Source: an uncultured Gammaproteobacteria bacterium
GTDB taxonomy: Bacteria > Patescibacteriota > Microgenomatia > JAMCZE01
Assembly: GCA_964576435.1 (NCBI GenBank)
Contig: CAZNUP010000001.1
Span: forward strand, 442,259-506,258
Reading direction: 5' to 3'
Length of the DNA stretch: 64,000 nt
Made by a program: the position numbers and the translations under genes. Shown one piece after another: positions 61 through 62,154 of this stretch; position 1 is the stretch's first letter; each line of letters opens with the position of its first letter. The notes beneath the pieces are model-generated. The model was not told the origin of the DNA. It ran no database searches and saw only the letters and a program-made list of their open reading frames with translations.

Positions 61-1560
61 ATGAAAAATTTATTAAAAAATCTTAACCTCACAAAAGGTG
101 ATTTTGTATTCTTTGCCCTAATCATTCTTCTCTTTTTTGGCACTAGATTAATTAACCTACTTATCATTCCAATCTTTACGGATGAAGCTATCTATTTAAG
201 ATGGAGCCAAATTATGGCCCACGACGCAAGTCTTAGGTACTTGCCTTTGTCAGATGGAAAGCCACCACTTTTTATGTGGCTAGTCTCCTTTGCTATAAGA
301 GGGGCTCCCTTTTTGGATTACCTCTTTGCAGGAAGACTTGTGGCAGTTTTTGCAGGGTTTTTTGGACTAATTGGGGTTTACTTTACAAGCCGTGTTCTCT
401 TTAAAGAAAAATTAGTTGCTAATTTCGCCGCCATTTTTTACTTAATTATTCCCTTTACCCTTTTTTACGACAGGATTGCCCTTGCCGACTCGCTATTAGC
501 AGCCTTTGGGATTTGGAGTATTGGCCTAGGAGTTCTTCTAGCAAAAACCTTGAGATTGGATGTTGCTCTAATTCTTGGATGGATAATTGGTCTTGGGCTT
601 CTAACAAAAACCCCAGCAATATTTTTCATCATGATCCAACCGTTGCTGTTTTTTACGGTTCGAAAATTCAAATTTGCTGACATTGTGAAATTCCTTCTGT
701 TAGTTGGCGTTGCTTTTGTTGAATCTCAAATAATCTTTTCGATTTTAAGGCTCTTCCCATTGTTTCATATGCTCGGTCAAAAAAACCACGAGTTTACGCT
801 GTCTCTGGCAGAATTCCTACAAAACCCATTTGCACTATTTTTCGGAAATATCAAAAGCTTGCTTTCATGGGAAGTTGGTTATTTAACAATCCCCGTTGTC
901 ATACTTATTCTTTTTGCTGTAGTAATGGCAATAAAAAAGCGCTTCCTCCCACCCTTAATCTTGACTCTTATTTTCCTAGGATTTGTAATTTCCATGGCAA
1001 GCTTCAATAAGGTAATTTTTGTCAGGTATTTATTAACCTTTACTCCCGCTCTATTTTTAGTAGCAGCATACGGTTTATTTGAGCTTCAAGCCTTAATTAA
1101 GAATAAATATTTTAAGATTTTGGCAATCGCCTTTTTCTTTGTTTGGCCCATTACGATAAGTATGGATTTATTAACAAATCCTATCCAAGCACAAATTCCT
1201 AAATCTGATTCCGACCAATATCTCCACTCTTGGCCAGCTGGTTTTGGTGTAGTAGAAGTAAGAGATTACTTAGCGAATGTTCCAGGCAAATCTATTGTTC
1301 TAACTGAAGGAACATTTGGACTAATGCCTTATGCCTTAGAGCTTTATCAAAGTGATTATCCAAATACGCAAATTAAACCCTATTGGCCATTGCCAAACAC
1401 ACCTCCTGAAGATATCTTAAAATCTTCAAAAGATACGCAAATATTTGTTCTTATGTATCAAAATCAAAACAAACCCGCAAACTGGAATATGACTGAAGTT
1501 CTACGCTTCCGTCAAGGAAATGGTAATGACTATCTCCGATTGTATAAATTAAACAGATGA
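61..1560 (+). CDS. GT-C fold integral-membrane glycosyltransferase, PMT_2/ArnT-like (GT39/GT83 superfamily)
   Basis: 499 aa with many TM segments. N-terminal loop motif TDEAIYLRW (DE motif) and SDGKPPLFMWLV (hPPL motif) are typical of polyprenyl-phosphate-sugar dependent GT-C transferases. Confidence 0.6.
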   Translation: MKNLLKNLNLTKGDFVFFALIILLFFGTRLINLLIIPIFTDEAIYLRWSQIMAHDASLRYLPLSDGKPPLFMWLVSFAIRGAPFLDYLFAGRLVAVFAGFFGLIGVYFTSRVLFKEKLVANFAAIFYLIIPFTLFYDRIALADSLLAAFGIWSIGLGVLLAKTLRLDVALILGWIIGLGLLTKTPAIFFIMIQPLLFFTVRKFKFADIVKFLLLVGVAFVESQIIFSILRLFPLFHMLGQKNHEFTLSLAEFLQNPFALFFGNIKSLLSWEVGYLTIPVVILILFAVVMAIKKRFLPPLILTLIFLGFVISMASFNKVIFVRYLLTFTPALFLVAAYGLFELQALIKNKYFKILAIAFFFVWPITISMDLLTNPIQAQIPKSDSDQYLHSWPAGFGVVEVRDYLANVPGKSIVLTEGTFGLMPYALELYQSDYPNTQIKPYWPLPNTPPEDILKSSKDTQIFVLMYQNQNKPANWNMTEVLRFRQGNGNDYLRLYKLNR

Positions 1561-3128
1561 AATCATTTGTCGCTATTTTTCTAATAGTTATTCTAGCCTT
1601 CGTTTTACGCTTCTATAATATTGCAACTATTCCGCCCTCCCAAGATTGGGACGAGGCAAGTTTAAGTTGGAACGCCTATTCAATTTTAAAAACCGGAACT
1701 GATGAATATGGTAATGCCCACCCCGTCTCAATTAGATCCTTTAATGATTTCAAGCCCCCTCTTTATGTCTACACTTTAGTGCCATTTCAAGCAATTTTTG
1801 GGTCATCTGACTGGGTCACGCGTGCTCCATCAGCATTGTTTGGTTCTCTAACTGTGCTAGTTATGTTTTTCTTAGGGTGGCTACTTGCTAAAAAGAAAGT
1901 TGGCCTTGCTGTTGCACTTTTATTTGCAGTTACTCCTTGGACAGTTCAATTTAGTAGAGTTGCATTCGAAGCAAATCTGGCTCTGTTTTGGTTTACTCTT
2001 GGTGTTCTGGGAGTTTGCCTTTTTATTAAAAAAGAAAAGGGCCTATATCTTATTCTTTCGACAGTCTGTTTGCTTCTTGCTATGTATGCCTACCATAGTA
2101 CAAGGATAGCAGTGCCAGTTTTTGTTCTTTTAGTGGCTCTTCTAAATGTAAAGCTTTTTTGGAGAAAAAAATTATTTGTCATTATTGCCGGTTTGATATT
2201 TGTGGTTGGCCTCCTTCCTCTTGCAAGAAATTATGTGCGAGTCGGGGGGACTCAAGCCAGGTTTGAGAGCGTCAGCATTTTTAATGCCAAACCTAAGCTA
2301 GAAACGGATACTAAGATTGAAAAAATTAATGCTTTACCATTTATTTACTATCCACAGATAATTACCAGAAACTGGTTATCACATCTAGATTTTAAATTCC
2401 TTTTCTTAACTGCAGACAACACAGATAGGCACCATGCTCCAGATTCTGGATTGTTGTTGTTTGGTGAAATTGCTGCACTTATTTCCGCATTTATACTTGT
2501 AGTAAGAAAAAGACCATCTTGGCTAGGGATGATTTTAGTTCTTATTTTTGTAGCACCTTTGGCATCTTCCATTTCAACCGGCTCTCCGCATGCGGTTAGG
2601 GGACTGTTATTAGTTGTGCCGCTGACTTTTCTATCAGGGTTTGGCATTGTAGGCTCTCTGGAATTTTTTAAATCGAAGTGGAAACTAGTTGTGGCCGGTA
2701 TTTGGTCAGTTGTTTTGTTCGCCAGTGTTTTCTATTTTACTCATCAATATTTCATTCACATGCCAGTTGAGTTTGCTAGGAATTGGCAGTATGGCTACAA
2801 GCAGTTAGTGGAAAAAGTTTTAGCAGTTGAAAATAACTATGATGCCGTTGTGGTAACCACTTACTACGATCAACCATATATCTATTTCCTAAACTATGGA
2901 AGAATTTCTCCAGTAATCAAGAATGATTCATTTTTCTTCCAGGGAATGGATAAATATGTCTTCCATGATCCGGCAGATGTGGAACTTTATGATAAGAAAT
3001 TGTGCTGCAAAATATTAATTGCAGCTGCTCCCCATGAAGAAGTTCCTGGTGCAAATATTATAGATAAGATATACTTCCCAAATGGAAGTGTTGCCTTCAA
3101 TATATGGTCAAAACAAGTAAGAAAGTAA
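1557..3128 (+). CDS. GT-C fold integral-membrane glycosyltransferase, PMT_2/ArnT-like
   Basis: 523 aa polytopic protein. WDEASLSWNAY (DE motif) and FKPPLYVY motif. ATGA overlap with the upstream gene, consistent with translational coupling. Confidence 0.6.
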   Translation: MKSFVAIFLIVILAFVLRFYNIATIPPSQDWDEASLSWNAYSILKTGTDEYGNAHPVSIRSFNDFKPPLYVYTLVPFQAIFGSSDWVTRAPSALFGSLTVLVMFFLGWLLAKKKVGLAVALLFAVTPWTVQFSRVAFEANLALFWFTLGVLGVCLFIKKEKGLYLILSTVCLLLAMYAYHSTRIAVPVFVLLVALLNVKLFWRKKLFVIIAGLIFVVGLLPLARNYVRVGGTQARFESVSIFNAKPKLETDTKIEKINALPFIYYPQIITRNWLSHLDFKFLFLTADNTDRHHAPDSGLLLFGEIAALISAFILVVRKRPSWLGMILVLIFVAPLASSISTGSPHAVRGLLLVVPLTFLSGFGIVGSLEFFKSKWKLVVAGIWSVVLFASVFYFTHQYFIHMPVEFARNWQYGYKQLVEKVLAVENNYDAVVVTTYYDQPYIYFLNYGRISPVIKNDSFFFQGMDKYVFHDPADVELYDKKLCCKILIAAAPHEEVPGANIIDKIYFPNGSVAFNIWSKQVRK

Positions 3129-3877
3129 GCATAGTAATTCCTGCCTACAATGAAGAAAAGAACTTTCGCGCGGGTCTTTTGAATCCAATGATTTCCTTTT
3201 TAGAAAAACAGAAATATACTTTTGAGGTAATTTTTGTCGATGATGGTTCAACAGATAAGACTAAAAGTCTTGTTCAGGATTTATCAAAGAAAATTTCTAA
3301 ACCTGGTAAAACGTATAGGGTGCTTTCGATTCCTCACGGCGGTAAAGCCGCAGCAGTAAAAGCAGGGATGCTTGATGGGGTTGGGGAAATAATTTTATTT
3401 ACTGACTTTGATCAATCAACTCCAATAAGTAACCTTGATAAATTTCTAAAAGCCCATGAAAAAGGTGCTGATGTTGTAATTGGAGTTCGTGGAGAAGGTG
3501 CCGAAACTAAAAAAGACACTATCTTTAGAAGATTTAGAAGCTGGGGGTTTGTCTTTTATGTTCAAATTGTAGCTCTTCCAGGAATTTCAGATACCCAGTG
3601 TGGTTTTAAATCTTTTAAACATGACGTTGCTAAAAAGATATTTTCTAATTTGAGAGTTACGTTTAAGAAGAAAGTATCTGGTGGCTATATGGGCGCCTTT
3701 GACGTCGAAGCACTTTTCATAGCAAAAAAACTTCATTGTACAATTGTCCAAATTCCGGTTAGCTGGGTAAAAGTCTATTCTGAAAAACTTAATATCTGGC
3801 GTGAACCCCTTCAGATGGCAATTGATACTTTAAATGTGAGAATTGCAGGCCTGTCCGGCAAATATGACAATATATGA
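3104..3877 (+). CDS. GT2 polyprenyl-phosphate sugar synthase (DPM1/GtrB-like)
   Basis: VSIVIPAYNEE...VDDGSTDKT N-terminal GT-A signature and a DxD-like FTDFD. The size of about 250 aa is typical of Dpm1/GtrB-type enzymes. Confidence 0.65.
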   Translation: MVKTSKKVSIVIPAYNEEKNFRAGLLNPMISFLEKQKYTFEVIFVDDGSTDKTKSLVQDLSKKISKPGKTYRVLSIPHGGKAAAVKAGMLDGVGEIILFTDFDQSTPISNLDKFLKAHEKGADVVIGVRGEGAETKKDTIFRRFRSWGFVFYVQIVALPGISDTQCGFKSFKHDVAKKIFSNLRVTFKKKVSGGYMGAFDVEALFIAKKLHCTIVQIPVSWVKVYSEKLNIWREPLQMAIDTLNVRIAGLSGKYDNI

Positions 3878-4854
3878 TTATCACCCAGACTCCTCTAAGA
3901 GTTAGCTTCCTAGGTGGCAATACAGACTTTTCCAAATACTATCTAAAACGAGGTGGCGCAGTTCTATCAACTGCAATTGATAAATATATCTACTGCATTA
4001 TTACCGAGAGATTTGATGAAAAAATTTACGTCAACTGGTCTAAAAAAGAAATTGTCGATACCCCAAATGAACTAGAGCACGAACTGGTTAGAGAGGCTCT
4101 TAAAAAAGTAGGCGTCACAAAAGGCGTAGAAATTAGTTTCTTGGCAGATATTCCCTCAGAAGGTTCGGGTCTTGGTTCCAGCAGTAGTGTTTTGGTTGGA
4201 GTTCTAAATGCTTTGTATCACTACATTGGTGAGACTCCAACAGAGGAGCGTCTTGCCAAAGAGGCTTGTGAAATTGAAATTGAAGTTTTGAAAAAACCAA
4301 TTGGCATTCAAGACCAATACATAGCAGCCTATGGTGGACTAAGATTCTTTGAATTCCAAAAAAGTGGTGCCATTAAATCAACTAGAGTTAATATCCCAAA
4401 AAACATCAAAGAAGACTTTGATAATAGTTTAATGATGTTTTACACAGGTAAAACTAGAAAATCGAGTACGATTCTCTCTTCAGTTAAAGAAAACATCAAG
4501 GATAAAGAAAAATTACTTGATAAAACTAAAGAACTAGCTGTAGCTGGTCATAAAGCCCTTCTTAAAGGAAAAGTAGAAACAGTCGGTAAACTATTAAACG
4601 ATTATTGGCGCTTAAAAAAGCAAATGTCCGGTGCTATTTCGAATCCCGAGTTAGACACTTTGTATGACAAGGCATTAAAGGCAGGAGCAATCGGTGGGAA
4701 GCTTTTAGGTGCGGGTGGGGGAGGTTTTATGCTTTTTATGGTTCCATCAGAAAAACGCCAAAGTGTTAGGAAAGCTCTTAAAAACTACAGAGAGATGCCA
4801 TTCCATTTTGAGAAAGATGGCAGTAAAGTAATTGTGAATATAAGTAGAAATTAA
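3874..4854 (+). CDS. GHMP-family sugar kinase, HddA-like (D-glycero-D-manno-heptose 7-phosphate kinase family, COG2605)
   Basis: PLRVSFLGGNTDF motif and the GHMP ATP-binding loop PSEGSGLGSSSS. It is adjacent to a GmhA-like SIS gene. Confidence 0.55.
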   Translation: MIITQTPLRVSFLGGNTDFSKYYLKRGGAVLSTAIDKYIYCIITERFDEKIYVNWSKKEIVDTPNELEHELVREALKKVGVTKGVEISFLADIPSEGSGLGSSSSVLVGVLNALYHYIGETPTEERLAKEACEIEIEVLKKPIGIQDQYIAAYGGLRFFEFQKSGAIKSTRVNIPKNIKEDFDNSLMMFYTGKTRKSSTILSSVKENIKDKEKLLDKTKELAVAGHKALLKGKVETVGKLLNDYWRLKKQMSGAISNPELDTLYDKALKAGAIGGKLLGAGGGGFMLFMVPSEKRQSVRKALKNYREMPFHFEKDGSKVIVNISRN

Positions 4855-4855
4855 T

Positions 4856-5983
4856 ATGGCTAAAGGCAAAGTCTTAATAATTGGTGGTGCAGGATTCATT
4901 GGTTCCCACACAGCTGACGAACTGAAAAATAGAGGATATGATATTAGAATTCTTGATAATCTTTCCCCAAAGACTCACTTCGGCGCTTGGCCAGAATATT
5001 TAGATTCTTCTTTTGAGAAGATGGAGGGCGATGCGAGAAGTAAGGAAGATTTAGAAAAATCTCTAACTGGTGTTGATTATGTTATTCATCTCGCCGCCCA
5101 AATGGATCTAATGCCTGACTTCAGTGTGTTTTTTGATACCAATGTTACAAGTACAGCTTTAATTTATGAACTTATTGTCAAAAATAAATTGCCGATTAAA
5201 AAAGTCGTCGTCGCTTCATCTCAATTTGTTTATGGTGAGGGTCAATGGAATTGTAAAAAAGATGGAGTAGTAACCCCAAATTTAAGAACCCCTGAGCAAC
5301 TAGAAAAAGGCCATTGGAATCCAGTTTGTCCAAAATGCGGTGGGGAAATAAACTATTTAGGAAATACCGAAGACCATCAAGATCCACCCAATCAATATGC
5401 TATTTCTAAGTATGCAGAAGAGCTAATTGCTTTAAAAATTGGCAGGCAGTATGGTGTGCCTTCGGTAGCAATGCGTTATTCAATTGTCCACGGGCCAAGG
5501 CAGTCATTAAAAAATGCCTATTCAGGAGCTTTAAGAATTTTTGCCATGAAACTTTTAAACGGAGAAACACCACCAATTTACGAGGATGGAGCCTCGTTAA
5601 GGGATTATGTCTCAGTTTATGATGTCGCTAGAGCCAATGCTGATGTTTTGGAAAGTGATAAAGCTAACTACGAAAACTTTAATGTTGGCGGAGAAAAAGC
5701 CTACACAGTAACTGAACTAGCAACAATGGTTAGAGACTTGCTAGGTTTGTCTATGGATTTAAAACCAAGTCATCTTTTTAGAGTTGGTGACATTAGAAAT
5801 GCAGTTTCAAAAACAGACAAACTTCGAAAAATTGGCTGGAAGCAAAAAGACACTGAAGAGAATATTGTTAAAAAATATTTGGAATGGCTTAAGATTGAAG
5901 TTAAAAAACAAGATTTCTACTCCTATATTAAAGAAGCTGAGCAAAACATGCAGAAAAATGGTGTCATTAAAAAAGGAGCATGA
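4856..5983 (+). CDS. NAD-dependent sugar epimerase/dehydratase (extended SDR) with a Cys-containing insertion
   Basis: N-terminal GGAGFIGSH Rossmann motif and catalytic YAISK (YxxxK). A 40-aa insertion carries C-x26-CPKC, a possible metal-ribbon. Confidence 0.65.
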   Translation: MAKGKVLIIGGAGFIGSHTADELKNRGYDIRILDNLSPKTHFGAWPEYLDSSFEKMEGDARSKEDLEKSLTGVDYVIHLAAQMDLMPDFSVFFDTNVTSTALIYELIVKNKLPIKKVVVASSQFVYGEGQWNCKKDGVVTPNLRTPEQLEKGHWNPVCPKCGGEINYLGNTEDHQDPPNQYAISKYAEELIALKIGRQYGVPSVAMRYSIVHGPRQSLKNAYSGALRIFAMKLLNGETPPIYEDGASLRDYVSVYDVARANADVLESDKANYENFNVGGEKAYTVTELATMVRDLLGLSMDLKPSHLFRVGDIRNAVSKTDKLRKIGWKQKDTEENIVKKYLEWLKIEVKKQDFYSYIKEAEQNMQKNGVIKKGA

Positions 5984-6585
5984 ACTCAAAAAAATTCTTC
6001 ACCGATTATTTTTCTACTCTAAAAACCGCACTTGATGAAATTGATGTTAAAAAGTTGGAGAAAAGCTGTGAACTCTTAAAAACTGCCTATAAGGGTGGTA
6101 AAACAATTTTTACTATTGGTAACGGGGGGTCCGCTTCAACGGCTAGTCACATGGCCTGTGATTTAGCGAAAACCGTAAGAGGTCATAAAGGCGATTCAAA
6201 GTGGAAAGGCTTTAAAGCAATTTGCCTTGCAGATAATATGGGTTTAATAACTGCTTGGGCTAATGACGCGGGATATGAAAAAGTGTTTTCCGGACAGCTA
6301 GAGAATTTAGGTTCAAAAGGCGACATTCTTATAGCAATTTCATCATCTGGGAATTCTGAGAATATCCTCTCATGTGTTAAGCTTGCTAAAGAGCTTGGTA
6401 TAAAGACAATAGGGATAAGCGGGTTCAAGGGAGGAAAGTTGAAAAATTTAGTGGACGTAGCTTTAGTTTCAAGTGAAGAAGCTTATGGTCCAGTCGAAGA
6501 TATTCAACTTGTCATAAATCACGCAATTACAAATTATTTTATAAATTATTTCAATGAAACTTTCAGTCACACTAGCAGTTCATAA
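5980..6585 (+). CDS. gmhA: SIS-domain sedoheptulose-7-phosphate isomerase-like (GmhA family)
   Basis: TIGNGGSASTASHMACDL matches the GmhA GNGGSAADAQHFAAEL signature. The SIS-typical size (201 aa) and the neighbouring HddA-like kinase support the call. Confidence 0.55.
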   Translation: MNSKKFFTDYFSTLKTALDEIDVKKLEKSCELLKTAYKGGKTIFTIGNGGSASTASHMACDLAKTVRGHKGDSKWKGFKAICLADNMGLITAWANDAGYEKVFSGQLENLGSKGDILIAISSSGNSENILSCVKLAKELGIKTIGISGFKGGKLKNLVDVALVSSEEAYGPVEDIQLVINHAITNYFINYFNETFSHTSSS

Positions 6586-7324
6586 TGAAGAAAAGTTCTT
6601 AGGTAGATGTTTAGATGCGATTAAAGGTATCGCAGATGAAATCATTATTGTCGATGGGCAGTCTGAAGATAAAACAGTAGAAATTGCCAAAAAGTACAAA
6701 GCAAAAATTTTCGAAGTCAAAAATGACCCAATTAACTTTCATAAACAAAAAAAACTAGCAAACGACAAGGCTACAGGCGACTGGATTTTGCAACTTGACG
6801 CTGACGAAGTTGTTTCTAAAGAATTAGCAAAAGAAATCGTAGATACAATAAATTCTAATCCAATGAAGAATGGGTTTTGGATGCCCCGGTTAAATTACTT
6901 TTTGGGAAAATTCCTTAGAAAAGGTGGAACCTATCCAGATTACACGCTAAGACTATATAGAAGGGGAAAAGGAAATCTTCCCGCTGATAATGTACACGAA
7001 CAAGCAAAAGTCGAAGGGGAAGTTGGTTTTTTGAAAAACGATCTGCTTCACTACAGTAATCCCACCTTTGGAGATTACATTGAAAAACGCTTCAATAGAT
7101 ATACAGACGAAATGGCAGCCAGAGCAAAAAACCCCACATTTTTTAATTACGTGTTTTTGCGTCCACTAGTTGACAAGAATCAGGGTTTTCTGTCGATCTA
7201 TGTTAGACATTTAGGATTCTTAGATGGGTTTCCAGGTTTCATTTGGGCTCTATTTAGTGCACTTCATTATCCAATTGCATATTTTAAATACCTCGATATT
7301 AAAGAGGGTAGAATAAAGATATAG
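6554..7324 (+). CDS. GT2 family glycosyltransferase (WaaE/KdtX-like small GT-A)
   Basis: LSVTLAVHNEEKFLGRCLD...VDGQSEDKT and LQLDADE (DxD-like). Confidence 0.55.
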   Translation: MKLSVTLAVHNEEKFLGRCLDAIKGIADEIIIVDGQSEDKTVEIAKKYKAKIFEVKNDPINFHKQKKLANDKATGDWILQLDADEVVSKELAKEIVDTINSNPMKNGFWMPRLNYFLGKFLRKGGTYPDYTLRLYRRGKGNLPADNVHEQAKVEGEVGFLKNDLLHYSNPTFGDYIEKRFNRYTDEMAARAKNPTFFNYVFLRPLVDKNQGFLSIYVRHLGFLDGFPGFIWALFSALHYPIAYFKYLDIKEGRIKI

Positions 7325-10743: not shown

Positions 10744-10745
10744 AT

Positions 10746-49375: not shown

Positions 49376-49384
49376 TAGCCTGGA

Positions 49385-50506: not shown

Positions 50507-50534
50507 TTGGAACCTATGTTCATTTTGCTACAAT
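50507..50534 (+). promoter_or_regulatory. Candidate promoter TTGGAA-16-TACAAT; near-leaderless
   Basis: TACAAT at 50529-50534, 8 nt upstream of the ATG at 50543. Confidence 0.35.
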
Positions 50535-50542
50535 ATCTCTAT

Positions 50543-54286: not shown

Positions 54287-57200
54287 TGAGAAAAGCACTT
54301 AATTGGTTAGATGACAATATTATTACCCTAATTGCCGGGTTCCTCTTAATTTTTATTCCTCTTTATCCAAAAATCCCAGCAGCTGATATTCTTCCAGGTT
54401 ACATTGTCAGGATTAGATTAGAAGACTTCTTTATCTTAGCCTCAATTCTTATTTTTGGAATCCAGTTTTTAAGAAAGAAAGTAAAAATCGGCTGGGATTT
54501 ACCCTCAATTGGCATTATTGTCTACATTGTAATAGGACTAATATCAGTCTTTTGGTCAATTTTTGTTGCCCAAACAGTCCCTATGGAGTTTGTCCATATT
54601 GGAAAAACTGCTCTTCATTGGCTAAGAAGAATTGAATACTTTTCACTCTTCTTTATTTTTTTTGGAACTGGCCGGGATGTCAAAAAGGTAAAGATCATTA
54701 TGACCATTTTCTTCCTAACAGTAGCCGCCGTGACTATTTACGGTTATGGTCAAAAATATCTTGCCTGGTGCGCTTTTTCCACAATGAATCGGGAATTTTC
54801 TAAAGGCGCGTGTCTTTACCTAACGGAGCACTCCCGTGTTCTTTCAACTTTTGGAGGACATTACGATCTGGCTGCCTACTTAGTTATTGCCCTCTCCCTG
54901 GCTTGGAGTTTTTTCTTTGGCCTAAAAAACAAGTTTGCCAAAATTGCCATGGGGGTAGTAATTTTGTGCGGCCTATGGCTTTTAATTCTAACTGCTTCCC
55001 GTATTTCCTTCGGTGCCTATTTAGTAGGTCTTGCTGTAGTTGTCTTTATCTGGTCATTCAAAAAAGGAGTTGGGTGGGGAATAAGTAGGGGATTTGTTGC
55101 TCTTTTCTTAAGTATTCTCTTGATGTTATCTTTTGGTGACTTGTCAGATAGATTCTTAACTCTTGTTCGCTTCGATGAACGTTTTGGTGGAATTCGCCAG
55201 ATCCTTTTAGCAAGTAGTATCAAACCCCCTGCTGGTGCGATTTTAGTTGGCGATGTGACTTCAAGGTCTGATCAGCCACCAACCCCAATAAAACCAGGAG
55301 ATGTCACAGGTGATGAAGCTCCTCTCTTTGTTAATGTCAAACAAGCAGATGGTTCCATAAAAAGAGTAGAAAAGCCACGAACCTACTCAAAATGTGCTTT
55401 AAGGTTTGACCTTTCCACTTGTATTAGACTTGAATCCACCTGGCCCAGAGCATTTGGAGCATTTGAAAAAAGTCCGCTCTTTGGAACTGGATATGCCACA
55501 CTAACAAAAGCCCAAATTGAAGACTTCACTGAAGCAGAGTCAACAGACAACGACTATTTGCGCTCTCTTGGTGAAACCGGTGCTCTTGGTTTCTTGGCCT
55601 TCTTTGGAGTAGTTGTTGGTATGGCAATAATTGCCTTTAGAAGCCTCTCAGGTATTAAAGACCCATTTGTATTCTCGCTAGTTGCTGGTTTTATAGCTTT
55701 TGTTGTTGGAATTCTTGCTAATGCCGCTTACATTGACGTGTTCGAATCGAGTAAGGTCGCATATGTTTTCTGGGGACTTTCCGGTTTAACGCTTGGCACC
55801 ATTTATGCCCTGAGATCAAAAATTGCCGAGGATAGAGAACCATTCAGACTGAATTTTGATTGGAAGAGATATCTAGCAGCGTTGAAGAAATTTTTTCTTT
55901 CCGATGTCCCTTGGGTTTTATTACTTGTTGTCTTAGTTATTGTCACTCATGCCTACAATCCAGCAACTAGTAAATTCACTTTCGATGGCCCAATTGCCGA
56001 CTGGCATTCTTGGCGCCAAGCAGACACCTCATCAGTATCAAGGAGATTTGATAGAGATGGAATAAATCTGTTATATCCAACCTTTGACGATGTCTCATCA
56101 ATTCCCTCAGGTTTACCAAACCCCAATGGTTTTAGATACGTCGAATTCCCAATCTACAACGCAGCAACTGTCATGGTCAAAAAGTTCATGCCAGAACTAA
56201 GTATTGAAGCAGCAGGTAGAACAACCTCAGCCTTAGCTACAGCCTTTTCCGCTCTTTTCCTATTCCTAATAGCCAGAAGAATTTTTGGAAGAAGAGCAGG
56301 CTATTTGGTAATGATTACCTATGCTCTTATTCCCTATAACCTGTTTTACGGAAGATCAATTCTCCCAGATCCTACCATGGTAACCTTCTCTCTTGGATCA
56401 ATTTACTTTGCATTAAGATATGCCACAAAATCAAAAATCTACAACCTAGTTTTGAGTTTAATTTTTGGAGCGATTGCCCTTTTAGTTAAGCCTTACGCCT
56501 TCTTTTTACTTGCTCCAATAGCTTATATTTTGATTGCCGCTTTTGGATTTTCAAAGAAATTCTTAATTGTCTCTGCTTGTTATGCTCTTGCAGTTATCCC
56601 CCTTCTTTGGTGGCGCCAGTTTATTACAGCTTATCCAGCAGGAATTCCAGCAAATGACTGGCTCTTTAATGGTGATGGAATTAGGTTTAAAGGAGCTTTT
56701 TGGCAATGGATTTTTGCCGATAGAATTGGAAGATTGATTTTAGGATTCTGGGGACTCATTCTTCTAGCGTTTGGAATAGTTAGAAAACCACAAGAAAAGT
56801 TTGGCTGGTTCCCCTTAATTTTCCTTTTAACATCTCTTTGCTATGTATTTGTCTTTGCAACCGGCAATGTCCGTCATGACTATTACCAAATTCTTTTAGT
56901 CCCATCTCTTGCTCTTCTAGTTGGACTTGGAGTTGATTCACTTTTGAAAGGTAATTTTGTCTCCAAAGGCTTGGCTGTCATAGCTTTTATCTTTATGGTT
57001 GCCTTTGGTTGGTACCAGGTAAGAGACTACTACAATGTTAATCATCCTGAAATTGTTAAAGCCGGACGCGCTTTCGATAAACTCGTTGATAATCCAAAAG
57101 TAACAGTTATTGCTCCATATATGGGAGATACTGCCTTCCTTTATCAAACAAACCACAGAGGCTGGCCCATTATGGAAGGCTCAATTGATGACATGATTGG

Positions 57201-57396
57201 AAAAGGTGCACAGTTCTATGTCTCAACAACTTATGACGATGTAACTAATGACATCTTGAAGTATTCAGCCACCCAAGCAGTTCAAGATGAAAGAAAAGCA
57301 TATAAAGTTGAACCATATCCCTTTACAACAATTGCAAAAACCAAAGACTATGTCATTGTTCAATTAGTTCCAACAGAAAAACTTCCAGAAAGGTAA
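54286..57396 (+). CDS. Fusion (1036 aa) of an N-terminal O-antigen ligase/Wzy_C-like domain (also the O-oligosaccharyltransferase family) and a C-terminal GT-C (PMT_2-like) membrane domain
   Basis: N-domain (about nt 54286..55725) has LTASRISFGAYLVG and STDNDYLRSLGETGALGFLAF, which match the Wzy_C 'aHNsyLqil.E.G..G' region. C-domain (about nt 55786..57396) has a second polytopic block with a WRQADTSSVSRRF loop. Confidence 0.55.
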   Translation: MRKALNWLDDNIITLIAGFLLIFIPLYPKIPAADILPGYIVRIRLEDFFILASILIFGIQFLRKKVKIGWDLPSIGIIVYIVIGLISVFWSIFVAQTVPMEFVHIGKTALHWLRRIEYFSLFFIFFGTGRDVKKVKIIMTIFFLTVAAVTIYGYGQKYLAWCAFSTMNREFSKGACLYLTEHSRVLSTFGGHYDLAAYLVIALSLAWSFFFGLKNKFAKIAMGVVILCGLWLLILTASRISFGAYLVGLAVVVFIWSFKKGVGWGISRGFVALFLSILLMLSFGDLSDRFLTLVRFDERFGGIRQILLASSIKPPAGAILVGDVTSRSDQPPTPIKPGDVTGDEAPLFVNVKQADGSIKRVEKPRTYSKCALRFDLSTCIRLESTWPRAFGAFEKSPLFGTGYATLTKAQIEDFTEAESTDNDYLRSLGETGALGFLAFFGVVVGMAIIAFRSLSGIKDPFVFSLVAGFIAFVVGILANAAYIDVFESSKVAYVFWGLSGLTLGTIYALRSKIAEDREPFRLNFDWKRYLAALKKFFLSDVPWVLLLVVLVIVTHAYNPATSKFTFDGPIADWHSWRQADTSSVSRRFDRDGINLLYPTFDDVSSIPSGLPNPNGFRYVEFPIYNAATVMVKKFMPELSIEAAGRTTSALATAFSALFLFLIARRIFGRRAGYLVMITYALIPYNLFYGRSILPDPTMVTFSLGSIYFALRYATKSKIYNLVLSLIFGAIALLVKPYAFFLLAPIAYILIAAFGFSKKFLIVSACYALAVIPLLWWRQFITAYPAGIPANDWLFNGDGIRFKGAFWQWIFADRIGRLILGFWGLILLAFGIVRKPQEKFGWFPLIFLLTSLCYVFVFATGNVRHDYYQILLVPSLALLVGLGVDSLLKGNFVSKGLAVIAFIFMVAFGWYQVRDYYNVNHPEIVKAGRAFDKLVDNPKVTVIAPYMGDTAFLYQTNHRGWPIMEGSIDDMIGKGAQFYVSTTYDDVTNDILKYSATQAVQDERKAYKVEPYPFTTIAKTKDYVIVQLVPTEKLPER

Positions 57397-57398
57397 CC

Positions 57399-58622
57399 AT
57401 GAGGATTTTAATGCTCACCCTCTATTTGCCTTATCCGCCAAACTCCGGCGGTCAAATTCGCTCCTACAACCTAATCAAGCATCTCTCCAAAAAACATGAC
57501 ATTACTCTGGTTTCTTTTATTAAAAAAGGTGAAGAAAAATATGCCAAAGAAATGGAAAAATACTGTAAAGAAATTCTCTATTTCTATAGATCAGATAGTC
57601 CCTTCGATCTAAAAAATGTCATTAAAACTGGCTTAAGTTTCTATCCGTTCCTAGTGATGAGAAATTTCTCACCACTTGGGAAAAAAGTCATTGCTCAAAA
57701 GATGAAAACGGAAAAGTTTGATCTAGTCCATGTAGAGACTTTTTACTTAAGACCCCACATTCCAAATAACATAAAAATCCCCGTCGTTTTAGTTGATCAA
57801 ACAATTGAATTTGTTGTTTACCAGCACTATGTTCAGACAATGAAGAACTGGCTCATGAAACCTCTCTACTATATTGATGTATTAAAACTTAAATATTGGG
57901 AAACAAAGTTCTGGAAAGAAGCTAAAAGGGTTATTGCAGTTTCCGATGCAGACAAACAAACTATGCAAAAAAATGTTCCTGGACTTAAAGTTGATATTAT
58001 TCCAAATGCTCCTGGAGACGATCTTTCAGGACTTTATGATCCAGAAGAGAAAGCCAAGTTTAAAACACCAATAATTTTCTATCAAAGTAATTTCCTCTGG
58101 ATGCAAAATGTTGAAGGAGCAGAATTTCTTGCAAAAGAAGTATTCCCGTTAGTTCTCAAGAAATATCCAAATGCAATTTGCCGAATCGTTGGACAAAACG
58201 TAGAAAGTAATGCTCATTTTAAAATTGATCAACTAAAAGGCAAAAATGTTGAGGTCATAGATCTTGATAAATCTGACATCAAAGGTGTTATTAAAGCTTA
58301 TAAAGAAGGAACAATTTTAGTAGCGCCTCTAAAAGGCCCTGGTGGAACTAGACTTAAAATATTGGGTGCTATGTCAGCTGGCGTTCCAGTGGTGACTACT
58401 CCTGTTGGAGCAACTGGAATAGAAGCTAAAAATGGCAAAGAAATTTTAATTGGCCAAACCAAAGAAGAGTTGGCAAATTTAGTTATAAAATTAATTGAAG
58501 ATAGGAAACTTTATAAAGACATAATTATTAATGCCAAGAAATTAATCAAAGAAAAATATGATTGGGGTAAAGTTGCTGAAGATTTAAGTAAAATTTATGA
58601 AGAAGCAGCCAGGAAAAATTGA
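57399..58622 (+). CDS. GT4 family glycosyltransferase
   Basis: GPGGTRLKILGAMSAGVPVVTTPVGATGIEAKNGKEILI, a GT-B C-domain. Confidence 0.7.
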   Translation: MRILMLTLYLPYPPNSGGQIRSYNLIKHLSKKHDITLVSFIKKGEEKYAKEMEKYCKEILYFYRSDSPFDLKNVIKTGLSFYPFLVMRNFSPLGKKVIAQKMKTEKFDLVHVETFYLRPHIPNNIKIPVVLVDQTIEFVVYQHYVQTMKNWLMKPLYYIDVLKLKYWETKFWKEAKRVIAVSDADKQTMQKNVPGLKVDIIPNAPGDDLSGLYDPEEKAKFKTPIIFYQSNFLWMQNVEGAEFLAKEVFPLVLKKYPNAICRIVGQNVESNAHFKIDQLKGKNVEVIDLDKSDIKGVIKAYKEGTILVAPLKGPGGTRLKILGAMSAGVPVVTTPVGATGIEAKNGKEILIGQTKEELANLVIKLIEDRKLYKDIIINAKKLIKEKYDWGKVAEDLSKIYEEAARKN

Positions 58623-59481
58623 ATTATCGATTATCATCCTCACATTTAATAATGAGACTGATCTCCCAGTCTGCTTAAATTCAATTTATGAAAGCGGGTT
58701 TTTAAAAAACTGGGAAGTAATTGTTATTGATAACAACTCCGAAGATAAAACAGTTTCCAATTTAAAAGACAACCTCAAAAAATATGAGAATTTAACAATC
58801 ATCGAAAACAAAGAAAATCTGGGTTTTGGCCCTGCAAATAATTTAGCAGCCAAAAAAGCTAATGGTGACTATGTGCTTTTCTTAAATCCAGACACCAAGT
58901 TGGAAAAAGACGCTATCGGTGGACCCTTAAATTATTTAAAGGAACACATTGGTGTAGGGGCAGTGAGTGCTAAGTTGGTTTTAGGTAATGGAAAGATAGA
59001 TTTGACTTGTCATAGAGGTGAACCAACTCCCTGGAACTCATTTTGCTACTTTTCGGGACTATCTAAATTGTTTCCAAAAAGCGCCACATTTTCTGGTTAT
59101 TATCTAGGAAATTTAGATTTGACCAAGGAATCTGAAGTTGAAAGTATTAACGGCGCCTATTTTATGCTCCCAAAAGAGGTGGGTACAAAGCTTAGCTGGT
59201 TTGATGAAGATTTTTACTGGAAAGGTGAGGACTTGGATTTATCTTACCGGATTAAAGAGCTAGGCTTAAAGATTGTTTACCTTCCAGAATTTGTCGTCCA
59301 CCACTACAAGGGTTCATCTAAAGGTCATAAACGGGGTAGTAAAACCCTAGAATCAAGATTCGAAGTCATGCGCCTTTTCTATGACAAACATTACAAAAAT
59401 AAATACCCTTCCTGGATGAGGAATTTTGTGCTAGCTGGAATTAAAGCACGTTATTTACTAGCTTATATAACAGGCAAATGA
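58597..59481 (+). CDS. GT2 family glycosyltransferase
   Basis: LSIIILTFNNETDL...VIVIDNNSEDKT and LNPDTKL. Confidence 0.7.
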   Translation: MKKQPGKIELSIIILTFNNETDLPVCLNSIYESGFLKNWEVIVIDNNSEDKTVSNLKDNLKKYENLTIIENKENLGFGPANNLAAKKANGDYVLFLNPDTKLEKDAIGGPLNYLKEHIGVGAVSAKLVLGNGKIDLTCHRGEPTPWNSFCYFSGLSKLFPKSATFSGYYLGNLDLTKESEVESINGAYFMLPKEVGTKLSWFDEDFYWKGEDLDLSYRIKELGLKIVYLPEFVVHHYKGSSKGHKRGSKTLESRFEVMRLFYDKHYKNKYPSWMRNFVLAGIKARYLLAYITGK

Positions 59482-59972
59482 ACATTGTAATTGATGCCAG
59501 ATTTTGGGGAGGAAAACATACCGGCCTTGGAATTTACACTAAAAATTTGGTCGAGAACCTAGAAAAGATCGACAAAAAGAACACCTATACACTCCTAGTG
59601 CGAGAAAAGGTTGAAAGCACATTTAATCAAATTATTGTCGATATCGATGCCTATTCATTAAAAGAACAATTTTCCCTTTTGCCAATTCTCTACAAATTAA
59701 AACCAGATTTAGTTCATTTCCCCAGTATTAATATCCCAGTTCTCTATTTTCGTAAATATGTAGTCACAGTTCACGATCTTATTAAACACGATTCAAAAGG
59801 AACAGACACAACAACCAAGTCGTCACTAACATACTGGGTTAAATACCTGGGGTACCGTTTTGTTTTTTGGTGGGCAACCACTTTTGCTAAAAAAATAATT
59901 GTTCCCTCGAATGCCGTAAAGAATAGGTTAAATAAACCAAACGTAATTGTGACATATGAAGCTGCCGAATAA
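59478..59972 (+). CDS. GT4 glycosyltransferase N-terminal (Glyco_trans_4-like) half; split or frameshifted gene, part 1
   Basis: MNIVIDARFWGGKHTGLGIYTKNL is a typical GT4 N-domain. It ends at a stop 17 nt inside the next ORF. Confidence 0.5.
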   Translation: MNIVIDARFWGGKHTGLGIYTKNLVENLEKIDKKNTYTLLVREKVESTFNQIIVDIDAYSLKEQFSLLPILYKLKPDLVHFPSINIPVLYFRKYVVTVHDLIKHDSKGTDTTTKSSLTYWVKYLGYRFVFWWATTFAKKIIVPSNAVKNRLNKPNVIVTYEAAE

Positions 59973-60465
59973 ATACGCGCTCTATATTGGAAACGCTTAT
60001 CCTCATAAAAACCTTGAGTTTTTAATTAAAGCATGGGAGGGAATTGACATGCCTTTAGTTTTAGCAGGAGGAAGGTCAGTCTTTTATGACAGACTAGAAA
60101 AAAAGATTACCTCAAAAAACATTATTCATGTGGGTTTTGTGGAAGATCTAACAGATCTTTACAAAAATGCCGAAGTTTTCATTTTTCCAACTCTCATGGA
60201 AGGTTTCGGTCTTCCACCTCTTGAAGCAATGAAGCATAAAGTTCCAGTAGTTTGTTCAGATATCCCGGTACTGAGGGAGGTTTTAGGAGATGCCGCTCTC
60301 TATTTTGATCCAAGAAATCCCCAAGATTTAAAAGAAAAACTCGAAGAAGTAAAAGAAAAAAGATCAGAATTAATTAAAAAAGGACTCGATCAGGTTAGTA
60401 AATATTCTTGGCAAAAGATGGCCGAGGAAACACTCAAGGTTTATGAAAGTTGCGCTAGTTTATGA
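59956..60465 (+). CDS. GT4 glycosyltransferase C-terminal (Glycos_transf_1) half; split or frameshifted gene, part 2
   Basis: KYALYIGNAYPHKN...EGFGLPPLEAMKHKVPVVCSDIPVLREV. It is in the +1 frame relative to part 1. Confidence 0.5.
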   Translation: MKLPNKYALYIGNAYPHKNLEFLIKAWEGIDMPLVLAGGRSVFYDRLEKKITSKNIIHVGFVEDLTDLYKNAEVFIFPTLMEGFGLPPLEAMKHKVPVVCSDIPVLREVLGDAALYFDPRNPQDLKEKLEEVKEKRSELIKKGLDQVSKYSWQKMAEETLKVYESCASL

Positions 60466-61516
60466 CCGCGTGAACAAATGGGGTGGGGCTGAGTCAGTGC
60501 TTTTAGCACTTCACGAGGTTTTTCCAGATGCACCACTTTACACCTCAGTCTATGCAAAAGATAAAACTCCCTGGGCGGATGTATTTGATGTTAAACCTTC
60601 TTTCTTGCAAAAACTTCCTCTTCCAAAAGATAAACATGAATACTACCCATTCTTAATGGGTCCCGCCTTTGAAGCATTTAATTTTGATGGCTTCGATATA
60701 GTAATTTCCATAACCCACGAATCAGCAAAAGCAGTGATCACCAAACCCGAAACCATGCACATTTGCTACTGTTTGACTCCGACAGGCTATCTATGGTCAG
60801 GAGTCGATTCCTATTTAAAACCAGGTCTTAAAAAAACTCTTTTGTCTCCAGTTTTAAGATACATGCGCTTTTATGACAAAATAATCTCCAAAAGACCAGA
60901 CCACTTTATTGGCATCTCAAAAACCGTTCAGGAAAGAATCAAAAAATATTATGGTTTAGAAAGTAGTTTAGTTTACCCGCCCGTAACACTTGGTAAAGTT
61001 TCAAAGCCTGGTGATTTCTTTTTGATTGTTTCAAGGCTTGTCCCCAATAAACGAATTGATATTGCTGTTGAAGCTTTTAATAAGCTAGGTTCTCCTCTTA
61101 AAATCATAGGAACAGGTAGAGAATTTGAAAATCTTAAAGGAAGGGCTAAATCCAATATTGAATTTCTAGGTCATTTGACAGATACAGAGGTTAACAAATA
61201 TTATGAAAGCTGCAAAGCTTTTATTCTGCCAGGTCTCGAAGATTTTGGTATCACACCAGTTGAAGCTCAAAGCTATGGTAAACCAGTAGTAGCATTTAGA
61301 GGTGGGGGAGCAACTGAAACAGTTATCGAAGAAAAAACTGGGTTTTTCTTTGACAAACAGTCACCGGAGTCGTTAGTAGAGACAATTAAAAAAGCTAAAT
61401 TTGATACTATAGACCCAAGGGACTGCGCTAAAAACGCAGTTAAGTTTTCTAAAGATAGGTTTAAAGAAGAATTTAGGGAAAAGATAGAAGCTGAATGGAA
61501 ATCTTATAAAAGATGA
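60443..61516 (+). CDS. GT4 family glycosyltransferase
   Basis: MKVALVYDRVNKWGGAESVL N-terminus and EDFGITPVEAQSYGKPVVAF. Confidence 0.75.
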   Translation: MKVALVYDRVNKWGGAESVLLALHEVFPDAPLYTSVYAKDKTPWADVFDVKPSFLQKLPLPKDKHEYYPFLMGPAFEAFNFDGFDIVISITHESAKAVITKPETMHICYCLTPTGYLWSGVDSYLKPGLKKTLLSPVLRYMRFYDKIISKRPDHFIGISKTVQERIKKYYGLESSLVYPPVTLGKVSKPGDFFLIVSRLVPNKRIDIAVEAFNKLGSPLKIIGTGREFENLKGRAKSNIEFLGHLTDTEVNKYYESCKAFILPGLEDFGITPVEAQSYGKPVVAFRGGGATETVIEEKTGFFFDKQSPESLVETIKKAKFDTIDPRDCAKNAVKFSKDRFKEEFREKIEAEWKSYKR

Positions 61517-62154
61517 AAAGACTTTATATTTTTAAGCGAGTTCTTGATCTTGTTGCTGGTTCAATTCTTTTAATCCTTCTCTCCCCGATTATGGTTCTAA
61601 TTGCTATTGCAGTTAAACTTGATTCCGCTGGTCCCGTTTTTGCAGATACGCCCATGAGATCGGGAAAAGATGGAAAGCTGTTTAGGCTTTATAAATTCCG
61701 TTCTATGATTCCAAACGCCCAAGAGCTTTTGATGACCGACCCAAAAATGAAAAAACTTTTTGAGGAGTACAAAAAAAATAACTACAAATTGAAAAACGAT
61801 CCCCGTGTTACAAGAGTAGGTTCATTTATAAGAAAGCATTCAATTGATGAATTTCCACAACTCTTTAACGTTTTAGGTGGAACAATGAGCCTTGTTGGTC
61901 CGAGGCCTTATTACGAGTTTGAAATCAAAGAGCAAATCCAAAAGTATCCTCACTTGAAAGACGACATTGAAGCTATGCACACTGTGCTTCCAGGAGTAAC
62001 TGGTGAATGGCAAGTCTCGGGAAGAAGTGAAATTGATTTTGAAAAAAGAATTCAAATGGATGCCGACTACGCTAGAAGAAAAAACATATTAGACGACATA
62101 GTAATCTTAATCAAAACTCCTTGGGCTGTCATATCAGGCAAAGGGGCTTATTAA
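61513..62154 (+). CDS. Initiating polyprenyl-phosphate sugar-1-phosphate transferase (small monotopic PGT, PglC/WbaP C-domain-like)
   Basis: [36 protein letters not shown] (re-entrant helix), [25 protein letters not shown] and the catalytic dyad region. Confidence 0.85.

Follow-up and report, generated by a model that had tools for sequence, protein, structure and literature searches.

Why would a bacterium with a small genome devote an almost unbroken run of genes to glycan assembly, and what might such a run build? This question is raised by the DNA presented above, a stretch of 64,000 nucleotides from contig CAZNUP010000001.1, hereafter called the window. A preliminary description of the window had proposed a glycosylation island at positions 61-62154, with an unusual density of glycosyltransferases (GTs). 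Our analysis showed that the element is a single chromosomal glycan super-locus of at least 69 kb, correctly assembled and nearly filling the 64-kb window. We read it as the main envelope glycan locus of a single-membrane member of the Microgenomatia, in which several known assembly routes are strung together, probably for two or more polymers and for their decoration on the outside; we consider this reading fairly probable. Coordinates refer to the window, and genes lie on the forward strand unless the reverse strand is indicated.

Gene content of the locus

Open reading frames (ORFs) of at least 100 amino acids (aa) numbered 58. Three antisense ones (38104-38427, 39103-39417 and 47596-47967) were discounted, leaving 55 ORFs in 61-62154, with a frameshift-split GT4 counted as two. 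Every ORF was scanned against Pfam with gathering cut-offs and selected ORFs were scanned against NCBIfam. A glycan-assembly family was matched above its Pfam gathering score by 45 of the 55 ORFs, and another three were added by fold or profile evidence, so that the GT assignments of the preliminary description were largely borne out by domain searches. Its statement that nearly every ORF serves glycan assembly holds for these 45, but not for four ORFs in 43266-50489, which are non-glycan.

Concerning the soluble GTs, 22 enzymes are encoded in 23 ORFs (nine GT2, nine GT4 and one each of the CgeB-like, GT8, GT6 and GT11 families). The families that had been named (GT2, GT4, GT6, GT11, CgeB-like) are therefore all present, with GT8 in addition, although the count falls short of the 25 or so cytoplasmic GTs suggested. 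About ten membrane transferases of the GT-C type had been expected, in agreement with the eight supported and 11 candidate GT-C enzymes of the window, a total that rises to as many as 14 with three more upstream. Six methyltransferases (one of them fused to the CgeB-like GT), three acetyltransferases (two hexapeptide, one GNAT), an MBOAT/AlgX pair, a Wzm/Wzt exporter and a Wzx flippase had likewise been reported, and all scored above the Pfam cut-offs. The initiating phosphoglycosyltransferase (PGT) anticipated at the 3' end was recognized as a Bac_transf protein at 61513-62154. The genes are also chained by overlaps as described, with 12 ATGA and three one-base overlaps and no same-strand gap longer than 49 bp among the glycan genes. 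The lengths of the longest ORFs sum to 99.8% of the span, and the true coverage is somewhat lower because adjacent ORFs overlap. Neither tRNA genes nor Rfam families are present in the window, and searches for promoters and terminators were uninformative.

At least 28 confirmed glycosyl-transfer enzymes are present in the window, whereas genomes of freshwater bacteria of the candidate phyla radiation (CPR) average 15 CAZy genes in a published survey (PMC9166423). The GT load is high for CPR; the scale is probably not unique, as a relative has a locus that spans at least 70 kb. Recent duplication was considered as the origin of the GT density and rejected: internal DNA repeats do not exceed 62 bp in the window and, with identities of only 25-49% among paralogous GTs, the enzymes form a diverse set and not a product of recent duplication. 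The GT2 proteins encoded at 31838 and 12302 are similar over their full length at a blastp E-value of 2.6e-18.

Extent, contiguity and host

The limits of the locus differ from those first proposed. The cluster itself is real, but it begins at least 4.5 kb upstream of the window, ends past 62154 with a DUF4012 gene and is interrupted at 43266-50489. The upstream 4.5 kb (contig L003) encodes a partial GT-C, an ORF of 148 aa, a PMT/PMT_2 GT-C and an MptA_B/GT87 GT-C; with at least three GT-C genes there, the island is truncated by the start of the window. The ORF of about 148 aa (L003 1168-1614) is a membrane protein lying between two GT-C genes, with a 48% identical counterpart in a relative (L095 7800-8240) and no family match. 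At the other end, the DUF4012 gene (62235 to about 64193) is the last of the island and is followed by genes for RecO and glycyl-tRNA synthetase (GlyRS) and by the dcw cluster (MraZ, RsmH and a FtsI-type penicillin-binding protein). The known extent therefore runs from about -4.5 kb to +64.2 kb of the window, approximately 69 kb or 10% of a contig of 709,729 bp.

Contiguity was established with Logan per-run contigs from SRR14271331, SRR14271332, SRR14271335 and SRR14271336, which tile the entire window at 100% identity with 0 mismatches (megablast). Every junction is covered, as the breaks of one assembly are bridged by contigs of other runs; in one independent assembly the breaks fall at 23,728/23,945, 27,276 and 45,789. 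A chimeric origin, which the preliminary description had left as a possible refutation, is itself refuted by these four runs. The Wzt, PGT and Wzy_C fusion proteins of the window were also found on the 709,729-bp NCBI contig.

The adjacent GlyRS is closest to those of Candidatus Amesbacteria (73%) and Patescibacteria (72%), followed by Gottesmanbacteria and Woesebacteria, which places the host in the Microgenomatia, within the CPR. The small-genome organism that had been supposed is borne out by this affinity and by the contig size.

Conserved ends and a mosaic middle

Synteny among relatives, the comparison suggested at the outset, revealed an architecture of conserved ends and a mosaic middle. 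In the first relative, a contig of 104,664 bp (L095) is colinear with the upstream contig and with window positions 61-6585 at 47-78% protein identity, and it carries extra GT4, YfhO, GT2 and PMT genes upstream of the 5' module. A second segment of the same relative (L097) is colinear with 36053-62154 at 28-72% identity and ends likewise with PGT and DUF4012 genes. From these two segments, the ends on either side of an intervening 32 kb and the part covered by the comparison, the distance spanned is put at 70.7 kb or more. As a relative also spans at least 70 kb, the scale of the island is probably a trait of the lineage and not a one-off. The second relative (100,340-bp contig; L096) has a Wzt that is 57% identical and keeps Wzm, Wzt, the CgeB-like GT, a methyltransferase and, later, the GT11 and GT2 genes; other methyltransferases, GTs and an asparagine synthase lie between the kept blocks. 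Piecemeal exchange within the variable middle is likely.

The 3' end is conserved much more widely. Among 80 fetched genomes, the colinear order fusion-GT4-GT2-GT4-GT4-PGT precedes GlyRS in 27, including records titled Gottesman-, Woese- and Roizmanbacteria and Paceibacterota, and one Saccharibacteria record has the core genes in a different order. The DUF4012 and RecO genes were seen between PGT and GlyRS only in the host's own contigs, and DUF4012 also follows PGT in the second segment of the first relative. Our literature search, incomplete in coverage, led to no description of such islands in Microgenomatia/Microgenomates or Saccharibacteria.

As a separate observation, several loci (L012, L014, L018, L019, L022, L034, L037 and others, one on a 950-kb contig) come from records titled 'uncultured Gammaproteobacteria' or 'Pseudomonadales'. 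They have the Patescibacteria-type order from core to GlyRS and a GlyRS 66-70% identical to that of the host, and their titles look mis-assigned.

Proposed working of the locus

We infer from gene content and order three arms and a precursor supply; the substrates, the number of polymers, the route feeding each of them and the attachment to the wall are proposed in this sense. In the core (50507-64000+), the small PGT would start an oligosaccharide linked to polyprenyl diphosphate, five GT4 enzymes (one frameshift-split) and one GT2 would extend it and a WcaF-like enzyme would O-acetylate it. After flipping, the Wzy_C+GT-C fusion could polymerise or ligate the product, with DUF4012 as a putative envelope accessory. 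In the ABC-transporter arm (13295-31375), GT4, GT2, GT8, GT6 and CgeB-like enzymes would assemble a cytoplasmic chain that methyltransferases modify and probably cap. Wzt would read the cap through its C-terminal domain and export the chain with Wzm, and MBOAT and AlgX would O-acetylate it outside. In the third arm, which would use lipid-monophosphate sugars, GT2 enzymes of the PpgS/GacI type are predicted to make polyprenyl-phosphate sugars; the one at 12302 is paired with a putative DUF2304 activator, and the GT2 proteins at 3104 and 31838 are possible further synthases. These sugars would be flipped by a flippase (Wzx, 23 kb from the GT2 at 12302, is the sole one present), and the eight to 11 GT-C enzymes of the window, with the three upstream, may add them to polymers or proteins on the outer face. 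Finally, a trio of GmhA-, HddA- and epimerase-like enzymes would supply a heptose-type precursor. As to a Gram-negative lipopolysaccharide O-antigen locus, domain scans of the window and its flanks gave no Lpx or Lpt genes, and CPR bacteria are described as lacking a Gram-negative envelope (PMC6744442).

Several points weigh against this scheme. Pfam scans of all ORFs of the window detected no LCP ligase, Wzz/PCP regulator, GtrA flippase or stand-alone Wzy, although an LCP ligase may lie elsewhere in the genome. The nucleotide-sugar route is incomplete in the window, which lacks HddC/GmhB and, with regard to the GT11, GDP-fucose genes, and a single PGT is there to serve all routes. All NCBIfam equivalog matches fall below their curated cut-offs, and the sugars named here are accordingly guesses. 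For three GT-C candidates (8188, 9454 on the reverse strand and 10734) the PMT_2 matches are only sub-threshold (E-values from 4e-5 to 6e-4). The division into arms follows gene order and analogy, and the evidence for the whole consists of sequence and predicted folds.

Going beyond this scheme, and quite tentatively, the 3' block (PGT, four GT4, one GT2, Wzy_C+GT-C fusion, DUF4012) may be a shared and possibly essential wall glycopolymer pathway of Patescibacteria, a counterpart of teichoic acids or secondary cell-wall polymers. The variable arm of about 50 kb would then be the source of coats that differ between lineages and govern how these episymbionts attach to their hosts and how sensitive they are to phages. 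The block lies close to the dcw cluster in the host genome, and no such pathway has been described for Patescibacteria in the literature searched. The variable arm contains as many as 14 GT-C enzymes, among its families a GT-C family not yet classified, and also a GT6 of the DXD type that, along with GT11, possibly makes a blood-group-like epitope.

Alternative explanations

A different arrangement of the same parts would be a single giant heteropolymer of two chains, in which a PGT-made oligosaccharide, flipped by Wzx, is grafted outside by a GT-C enzyme onto an ABC-exported backbone. [quoted passage not shown] Nevertheless, the core is conserved over Patescibacteria whereas the ABC arm is variable, which suggests separable products. 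Moreover, rml genes and an LCP ligase were not found in the window, and 11-14 GT-C enzymes are far above the need of one grafting step. We regard a single dual-chain product as rather unlikely.

The locus could instead serve mainly protein glycosylation, with the Wzy_C domain acting as an O-oligosaccharyltransferase (O-OTase) of the PglL/PilO type and PMT-like GT-C enzymes O-glycosylating pilins, S-layer or other surface proteins. A Wzy_C domain is indeed present and this Pfam family includes O-OTases; the upstream paralogs match PMT/GT39, the protein O-mannosyltransferase family, and type IV pili abound in CPR bacteria (PMC6744442). On the other hand, Wzm/Wzt with Wzt_C and the MBOAT/AlgX pair are hallmarks of polysaccharide export and modification, and the window contains no pilin or S-layer gene. 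In addition, PMT_2 is a broad family that includes the lipid A-modifying ArnT, to which the ORF at 51582 is structurally closest. A chiefly protein-directed function seems to us improbable.

Acquisition of the whole island by recent horizontal transfer, as a mobile genomic island, has very little in its favor. Surface-glycan loci are often exchanged and, beyond the two relatives, the best Wzt matches are about 50% identical and come from unrelated phyla. However, the window has no tRNA gene, and Pfam scans of its ORFs gave no integrase or transposase domain. The GC content of the island (0.362) is close to that of its flanks (0.373-0.378). At either end, gene order is shared with relatives at 50-60% identity, and in 27 genomes the 3' core stands beside GlyRS. 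Finally, an artefactual joining of unrelated contigs by assembly or binning, to which the three sites of breakage in one independent assembly might point, can hardly be credited, given the mismatch-free bridging of all breaks by the other runs, the absence of internal repeats above 62 bp, a uniform GC content of 0.32-0.40 across the window and the same gene order over the junctions in a relative.

The 5' module

Having retained the multi-route envelope locus as our preferred reading, we describe its genes from the 5' end. The 5' part of the window opens with two PMT_2-family GT-C genes, 61-1560 (GT39-83-like, about 10 transmembrane (TM) segments, 35.4 bits against a cut-off of 26.1) and 1557-3128 (about 11 TM segments, 36.8 bits), with 58 and 56% identical orthologs, respectively, in the first relative. 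The GT2 at 3104-3877 (Glycos_transf_2, 82.4 bits) is a candidate polyprenyl-phosphate sugar synthase of the ArnC/PgfS-like type, as its best NCBIfam matches are PgfS, EpsD and ArnC, all below cut-off. The three genes of the putative heptose-type supply follow. The first is a GHMP sugar kinase (3874-4854; GHMP_kinases_N and _C) whose best match is the heptose-7-phosphate kinase HddA (NCBIfam, 184.7 bits with a cut-off of 600) and which has a 78% identical ortholog in the first relative. The second is a NAD-dependent sugar epimerase/dehydratase of the short-chain dehydrogenase/reductase (SDR) type (4856-5983; Epimerase, 129.7 bits), GalE-, RmlB- and heptose-epimerase-like below the NCBIfam cut-offs. 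The third is a SIS-domain isomerase (5980-6585; SIS_2, 61.4 bits) that best matches the sedoheptulose-7-phosphate isomerase GmhA (TIGR00441, 122.7 bits against a cut-off of 209).

A GT2 (6554-7324; Glycos_transf_2, 71.3 bits) and a GT4 (7374-8402; Glycos_transf_1, 84.7 bits) precede three polytopic GT-C candidates with sub-threshold PMT_2 scores. These are 8188-9483 (seven TM segments, 20.4 bits, E-value 6e-4), which probably has its true start downstream of 8188, 9454-10743 on the reverse strand (eight TM segments, 24.4 bits, E-value 3.9e-5, hhalign 17%) and 10734-12302 (at least six TM segments, 21.2 bits, E-value 3.6e-4). Comparisons by hhalign and local hidden Markov models gave no added support either way for these three. 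The GT2 at 12302-12967 (Glycos_transf_2, 91.7 bits) is a candidate polyprenyl-phosphate sugar synthase, similar to PpgS, AglJ and GacI, scoring 141 bits for PpgS and 121 bits for AglJ in NCBIfam (curated cut-offs 370 and 325). A gene for a small DUF2304 protein of three TM segments (12969-13298; 82.5 bits vs 25.5) begins 1 nt past its stop. The protein belongs to the family of GacJ and Rv3632, reported as activators of the preceding GT2 (bioRxiv 10.1101/180810).

The proposed ABC-transporter arm

This arm starts with two GT4 genes (13295-14374 and 14352-15368; Glycos_transf_1, 121.4 and 87.4 bits) and a gene for an S-adenosylmethionine (SAM) methyltransferase (15322-16125; Methyltransf_25, 57.8 bits). 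The MBOAT membrane O-acyltransferase (16103-17521; 119.1 bits) is followed by an AlgX-type SGNH O-acetyltransferase anchored by a single N-terminal TM segment (17524-18651; ALGX, 105 bits). The Wzm ABC-2 permease (18689-19513; ABC2_membrane, 71.4 bits; a 53% ortholog in the second relative) is adjacent to the Wzt ATPase (19517-20767; ABC_tran, 75.7 bits). The latter carries a C-terminal glycan-binding domain, Wzt_C, at residues 268-391 (71.1 bits, cut-off 30.4), as in the cap-recognising subtype of these exporters. Directly downstream of Wzt, a CgeB-like GT (Glyco_trans_1_2) is fused to a methyltransferase (20771-22498; Pfam); in the second relative (L096 11254-13028) the two are separate adjacent genes in reversed order. 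Features of WbdD-like terminators were sought in this fusion and no kinase domain was found. A second fusion joins a GT8 (Glyco_transf_8, 28.5 vs 24.3 bits) to a WbbJ/WcaF-like hexapeptide O-acetyltransferase (22495-23985; Hexapep, 61.9 bits). It is followed by a GT2 (23973-24749; Glycos_transf_2, 108.6 bits) and a member of the CmcI/rhamnosyl O-methyltransferase family (24721-25419; RMNT_CmcI, 37.4 bits).

The protein at 25416-27128 contains a GT6 domain of the DXD type in residues 1-210 (Glyco_transf_6, 153.8 bits vs 25) and a C-terminal domain of about 360 aa that had no Pfam match. The GT6 domain matches BoGT6a (E-value 3.9e-43) and human ABO transferases (3e-38), and in NCBIfam it reaches 205.6 bits for Gltr_6 (cut-off 250). 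In the alignment it has DAD (DXD) where BoGT6a has NAN and it keeps the DES catalytic motif; bacterial GT6 enzymes of the DXD type have been reported as rare (PMC3961637). As a GT11 is encoded 5.5 kb away (32604), an H/A-antigen-like epitope made by the two is conceivable. The arm continues with a SAM methyltransferase (27118-27939; Methyltransf_11, 48.3 bits), a soluble protein of 315 aa without TM segments (27914-28861; no Pfam, NCBIfam or PDB sequence match) and a putative GT-C enzyme from a family without a Pfam model (28861-30372; AlphaFold2 and Foldseek, see below). It ends with a SAM methyltransferase with a Trm112p-like N-terminus (30362-31375; Methyltransf_11, 76.3 bits).

The middle stretch and a non-glycan cassette

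Two genes on the reverse strand encode a GNAT N-acetyltransferase (31344-31865; Acetyltransf_1, 43.9 bits) and a GT2 similar over its full length to the PpgS-like GT2 at 12302 (31838-32566; Glycos_transf_2, 94.3 bits). The GT11, of the alpha-1,2-fucosyltransferase family (32604-33494; Glyco_transf_11, 111.4 bits), is kept in the second relative along with the following GT2 (33479-34567; Glycos_transf_2, 124.5 bits). A protein of 12 TM segments without a Pfam match (34564-36081) is a probable GT-C enzyme (hhalign, 87%). The Wzx/MOP flippase (36053-37327; Polysacc_synt, 88.4 bits vs 28.2) also matches the MOP flippase and TuaB models of NCBIfam. Downstream are a GT2 (37233-38078; Glycos_transf_2, 49.3 bits), a SAM methyltransferase (38075-38839; Methyltransf_11, 57.8 bits), a GT4 (38800-39954; Glycos_transf_1, 76.4 bits) and a short GT-C (39951-41033; PMT_2, 43.5 bits) that has no counterpart between the GT4 and GT2 genes of the first relative (L097). 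A GT2 (41048-41935; Glycos_transf_2, 107.1 bits) and another GT-C (41932-43242; PMT_2, 44.1 bits) complete the stretch, the latter with a 56% ortholog in the first relative.

The glycan genes are interrupted by a cassette of four ORFs on the reverse strand (43266-50489, 7.2 kb; GC 0.393 vs 0.362 for the island). It encodes a protein of 1565 aa (43266-47963) in which nothing but a central ATPase of the MutS_V/ABC type could be recognised (PADLOC mad8, 9e-15), an ORF of 96 aa (48306-48596), a NUDIX protein with a winged helix-turn-helix (48662-49375) and a kinase-like protein with weak matches to MAD6, MkoA and LanKC (49500-50489). This may be a defence-type cassette. In the first relative, only 17 bp separate the PMT_2 gene from the GT4 gene at this junction, with no cassette between them, which makes the cassette an insertion relative to that genome.

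The conserved 3' core

Beyond the cassette, two GT4 genes (50507-51595 and 52609-53697; Glycos_transf_1, 91.2 and 127.7 bits) enclose a gene for a predicted minimal GT-C enzyme of 356 aa (51582-52652; AlphaFold2, Foldseek and hhalign). A WcaF-like hexapeptide O-acetyltransferase (53690-54286; Hexapep, 63.7 bits; WcaF, 104.8 bits, below cut-off) precedes the Wzy_C and PMT_2 fusion protein (54286-57396; about 1040 aa and 19 TM segments; 53.8 and 56.0 bits, respectively). The Wzy_C domain, the sole one in the window, belongs to the O-antigen ligase/polymerase/O-OTase superfamily. The fusion has a full-length ortholog of 61% identity in the first relative and no sequence relative in PDB, and its C-terminal part is kept in many Patescibacteria loci. 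It was also seen upstream of GT4-GT2-GT4-GT4-PGT near GlyRS in L012, L018, L037, L097 and others.

A GT4 (57399-58622) and a GT2 (58597-59481) of the conserved core, both identified by Pfam and by syntenic orthologs, are followed by the split GT4 (59478-60465). Its N-domain (Glyco_transf_4, 59478-59972) and C-domain (Glycos_transf_1, 59956-60465) lie in different frames with an overlap of 17 nt, and the break falls exactly in the linker that joins these domains. The split, read identically in three runs, was seen in this genome only: in 10 relatives the gene is a single ORF of 359-405 aa, and a conserved two-gene architecture was rejected on this ground. Either the gene has recently become a pseudogene or it encodes an active GT-B enzyme in two pieces. 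The last GT4 of the core (60443-61516; Pfam and syntenic orthologs) leads to the small monotopic PGT (61513-62154), which is of the WbaP C-terminal/PglC type (Bac_transf, 199 bits vs 27; TIGR03025, 248.7 bits with a cut-off of 295.6). The DUF4012 protein of 652 aa (62235-64000) runs past the end of the window and scores 88.6 bits on its full-length copy (L005:10169-12127). This envelope-linked family is enriched in CPR and Gram-positive bacteria (PMC6744442).

GT-C enzymes and ORFs without a Pfam match

Five GT-C proteins pass the Pfam PMT_2 cut-off, namely those encoded at 61, 1557, 39951 and 41932 and the fusion at 54286. Additionally, searches of Pfam, NCBIfam and PDB sequences yielded no match for four ORFs, three of which are polytopic, with 7-12 TM segments; a profile search likewise gave nothing. 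By their predicted structures, two are of the GT-C fold. For ORF 51582 (AlphaFold2 pLDDT 92.9), the best Foldseek match is ArnT (1.2e-6, TMq 0.67), followed by OST, Pmt4, ALG12 and Emb. Nine of its 22 homologs carry PMT_2, and its family profile aligns with the window PMT_2 profile at an hhalign probability of 95%. At 356 aa it is a very short GT-C, consisting of the membrane module only. For ORF 28861 (pLDDT 95.9), 17 of the 18 best Foldseek matches are GT-C enzymes, with PglB first (5.6e-5) and STT3, DPY19, PimE and AglB among the others. Its family comprises 313 cluster representatives in a library of 1.84 billion proteins and has no Pfam model. A nearly invariant N-terminal Y-x-D-D-W motif was observed in this family, and the model has a C-terminal beta-rich domain. 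ORF 34564 is a probable GT-C according to its sequence profile, which matches the window PMT_2 profile at 87% (hhalign) over the PPLY loop region. All three had been considered as Wzy polymerases, an assignment that was discarded in favor of GT-C by hhalign (34564) and Foldseek (28861 and 51582).

Significance and comparison with known systems

CPR bacteria have shed most of their biosynthesis, yet about 10% of this 710-kb contig is given to one surface-glycan locus, with a GT count roughly twice that reported for an average whole CPR genome. Such an outlay points to a glycan coat that is both costly and central to their biology, for instance in attaching to hosts, resisting phages or keeping the envelope intact.

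The closest parallels are the Rha-CWPS loci of S. pyogenes (gac), S. mutans (rgp), L. lactis (cwps) and E. faecalis (epa), whose hosts also have a single membrane. The present island is two to three times longer than these. Their logic, known for Gram-positive wall polysaccharides, combines an ABC-exported backbone, a polyprenyl-phosphate-sugar GT2 with DUF2304, a Wzx-type flippase and an external GT-C (PMC9574508; bioRxiv 10.1101/180810). The island has the corresponding genes, with a candidate synthase in its GacI/GacJ-like pair, and shows the same division into conserved and variable parts. Unlike them, it carries no rmlABCD, no recognisable rhamnosyltransferases and no LCP ligase in the locus, and has heptose-type genes instead; RmlA and RmlC are absent from the window, its one SDR is weakly RmlB/GalE-like and RmlD is not among the matches shown. 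Furthermore, it has 11-14 GT-C candidates against one to three, six methyltransferases and a host in another phylum. Since the rhamnose genes are lacking, the locus would work like Rha-CWPS but is no member of that group.

The ABC arm resembles the ABC-dependent O-polysaccharide systems of E. coli O8/O9a, with Wzm, a Wzt bearing Wzt_C and a methyltransferase protein directly downstream, at the place expected of a capping enzyme. By analogy with the WbdD terminator, this position suggests a capping role. In contrast to O8/O9a, the methyltransferase forms one protein with a CgeB-like GT, a kinase/coiled-coil architecture as in WbdD was not detected and there is neither a lipid A-core nor a WaaL context. 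Likewise, the succession of a PpgS-like GT2 and DUF2304, the many GT-C enzymes that would use lipid-monophosphate sugars and the MptA_B/GT87-family gene just upstream of the window recall the mycobacterial PpgS-Rv3632-Rv3779, MptA/MptB, Emb and Aft machinery. The island differs from it in having no arabinogalactan or mycolate genes, in matches that are family-level and sub-equivalog and in the tiny genome of its host.

Concerning single enzymes, the GT6 is related to BoGT6a of Bacteroides ovatus through its domain match and DES motif, and differs in having DAD for NXN and the extra domain of about 360 aa. In the synthesis of a blood-group-like antigen by E. coli O86, a GT11 (WbnK) and a GT6 (WbnI) belong to one surface-glycan locus, as here. 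As a whole, the island is comparable to the hypervariable glycosylation islands known from streamlined free-living bacteria, HVR2 of SAR11 among them, which also form a large GT-rich region with conserved flanks and a variable interior in a small genome. Unlike HVR2, the island keeps both of its long end modules at a protein divergence of about 50%, and its 3' part is shared by much of the phylum. Every component falls into a known family and loci that combine several glycan routes are familiar; the locus is an unusually large member of this kind with a few new details. These are two membrane proteins assignable to the GT-C fold by their predicted structures, one of them from a family of about 300 clusters without a Pfam model, a map of conserved and variable parts and a core block conserved in many Patescibacteria genomes, which could be targeted in the few that are cultivable.

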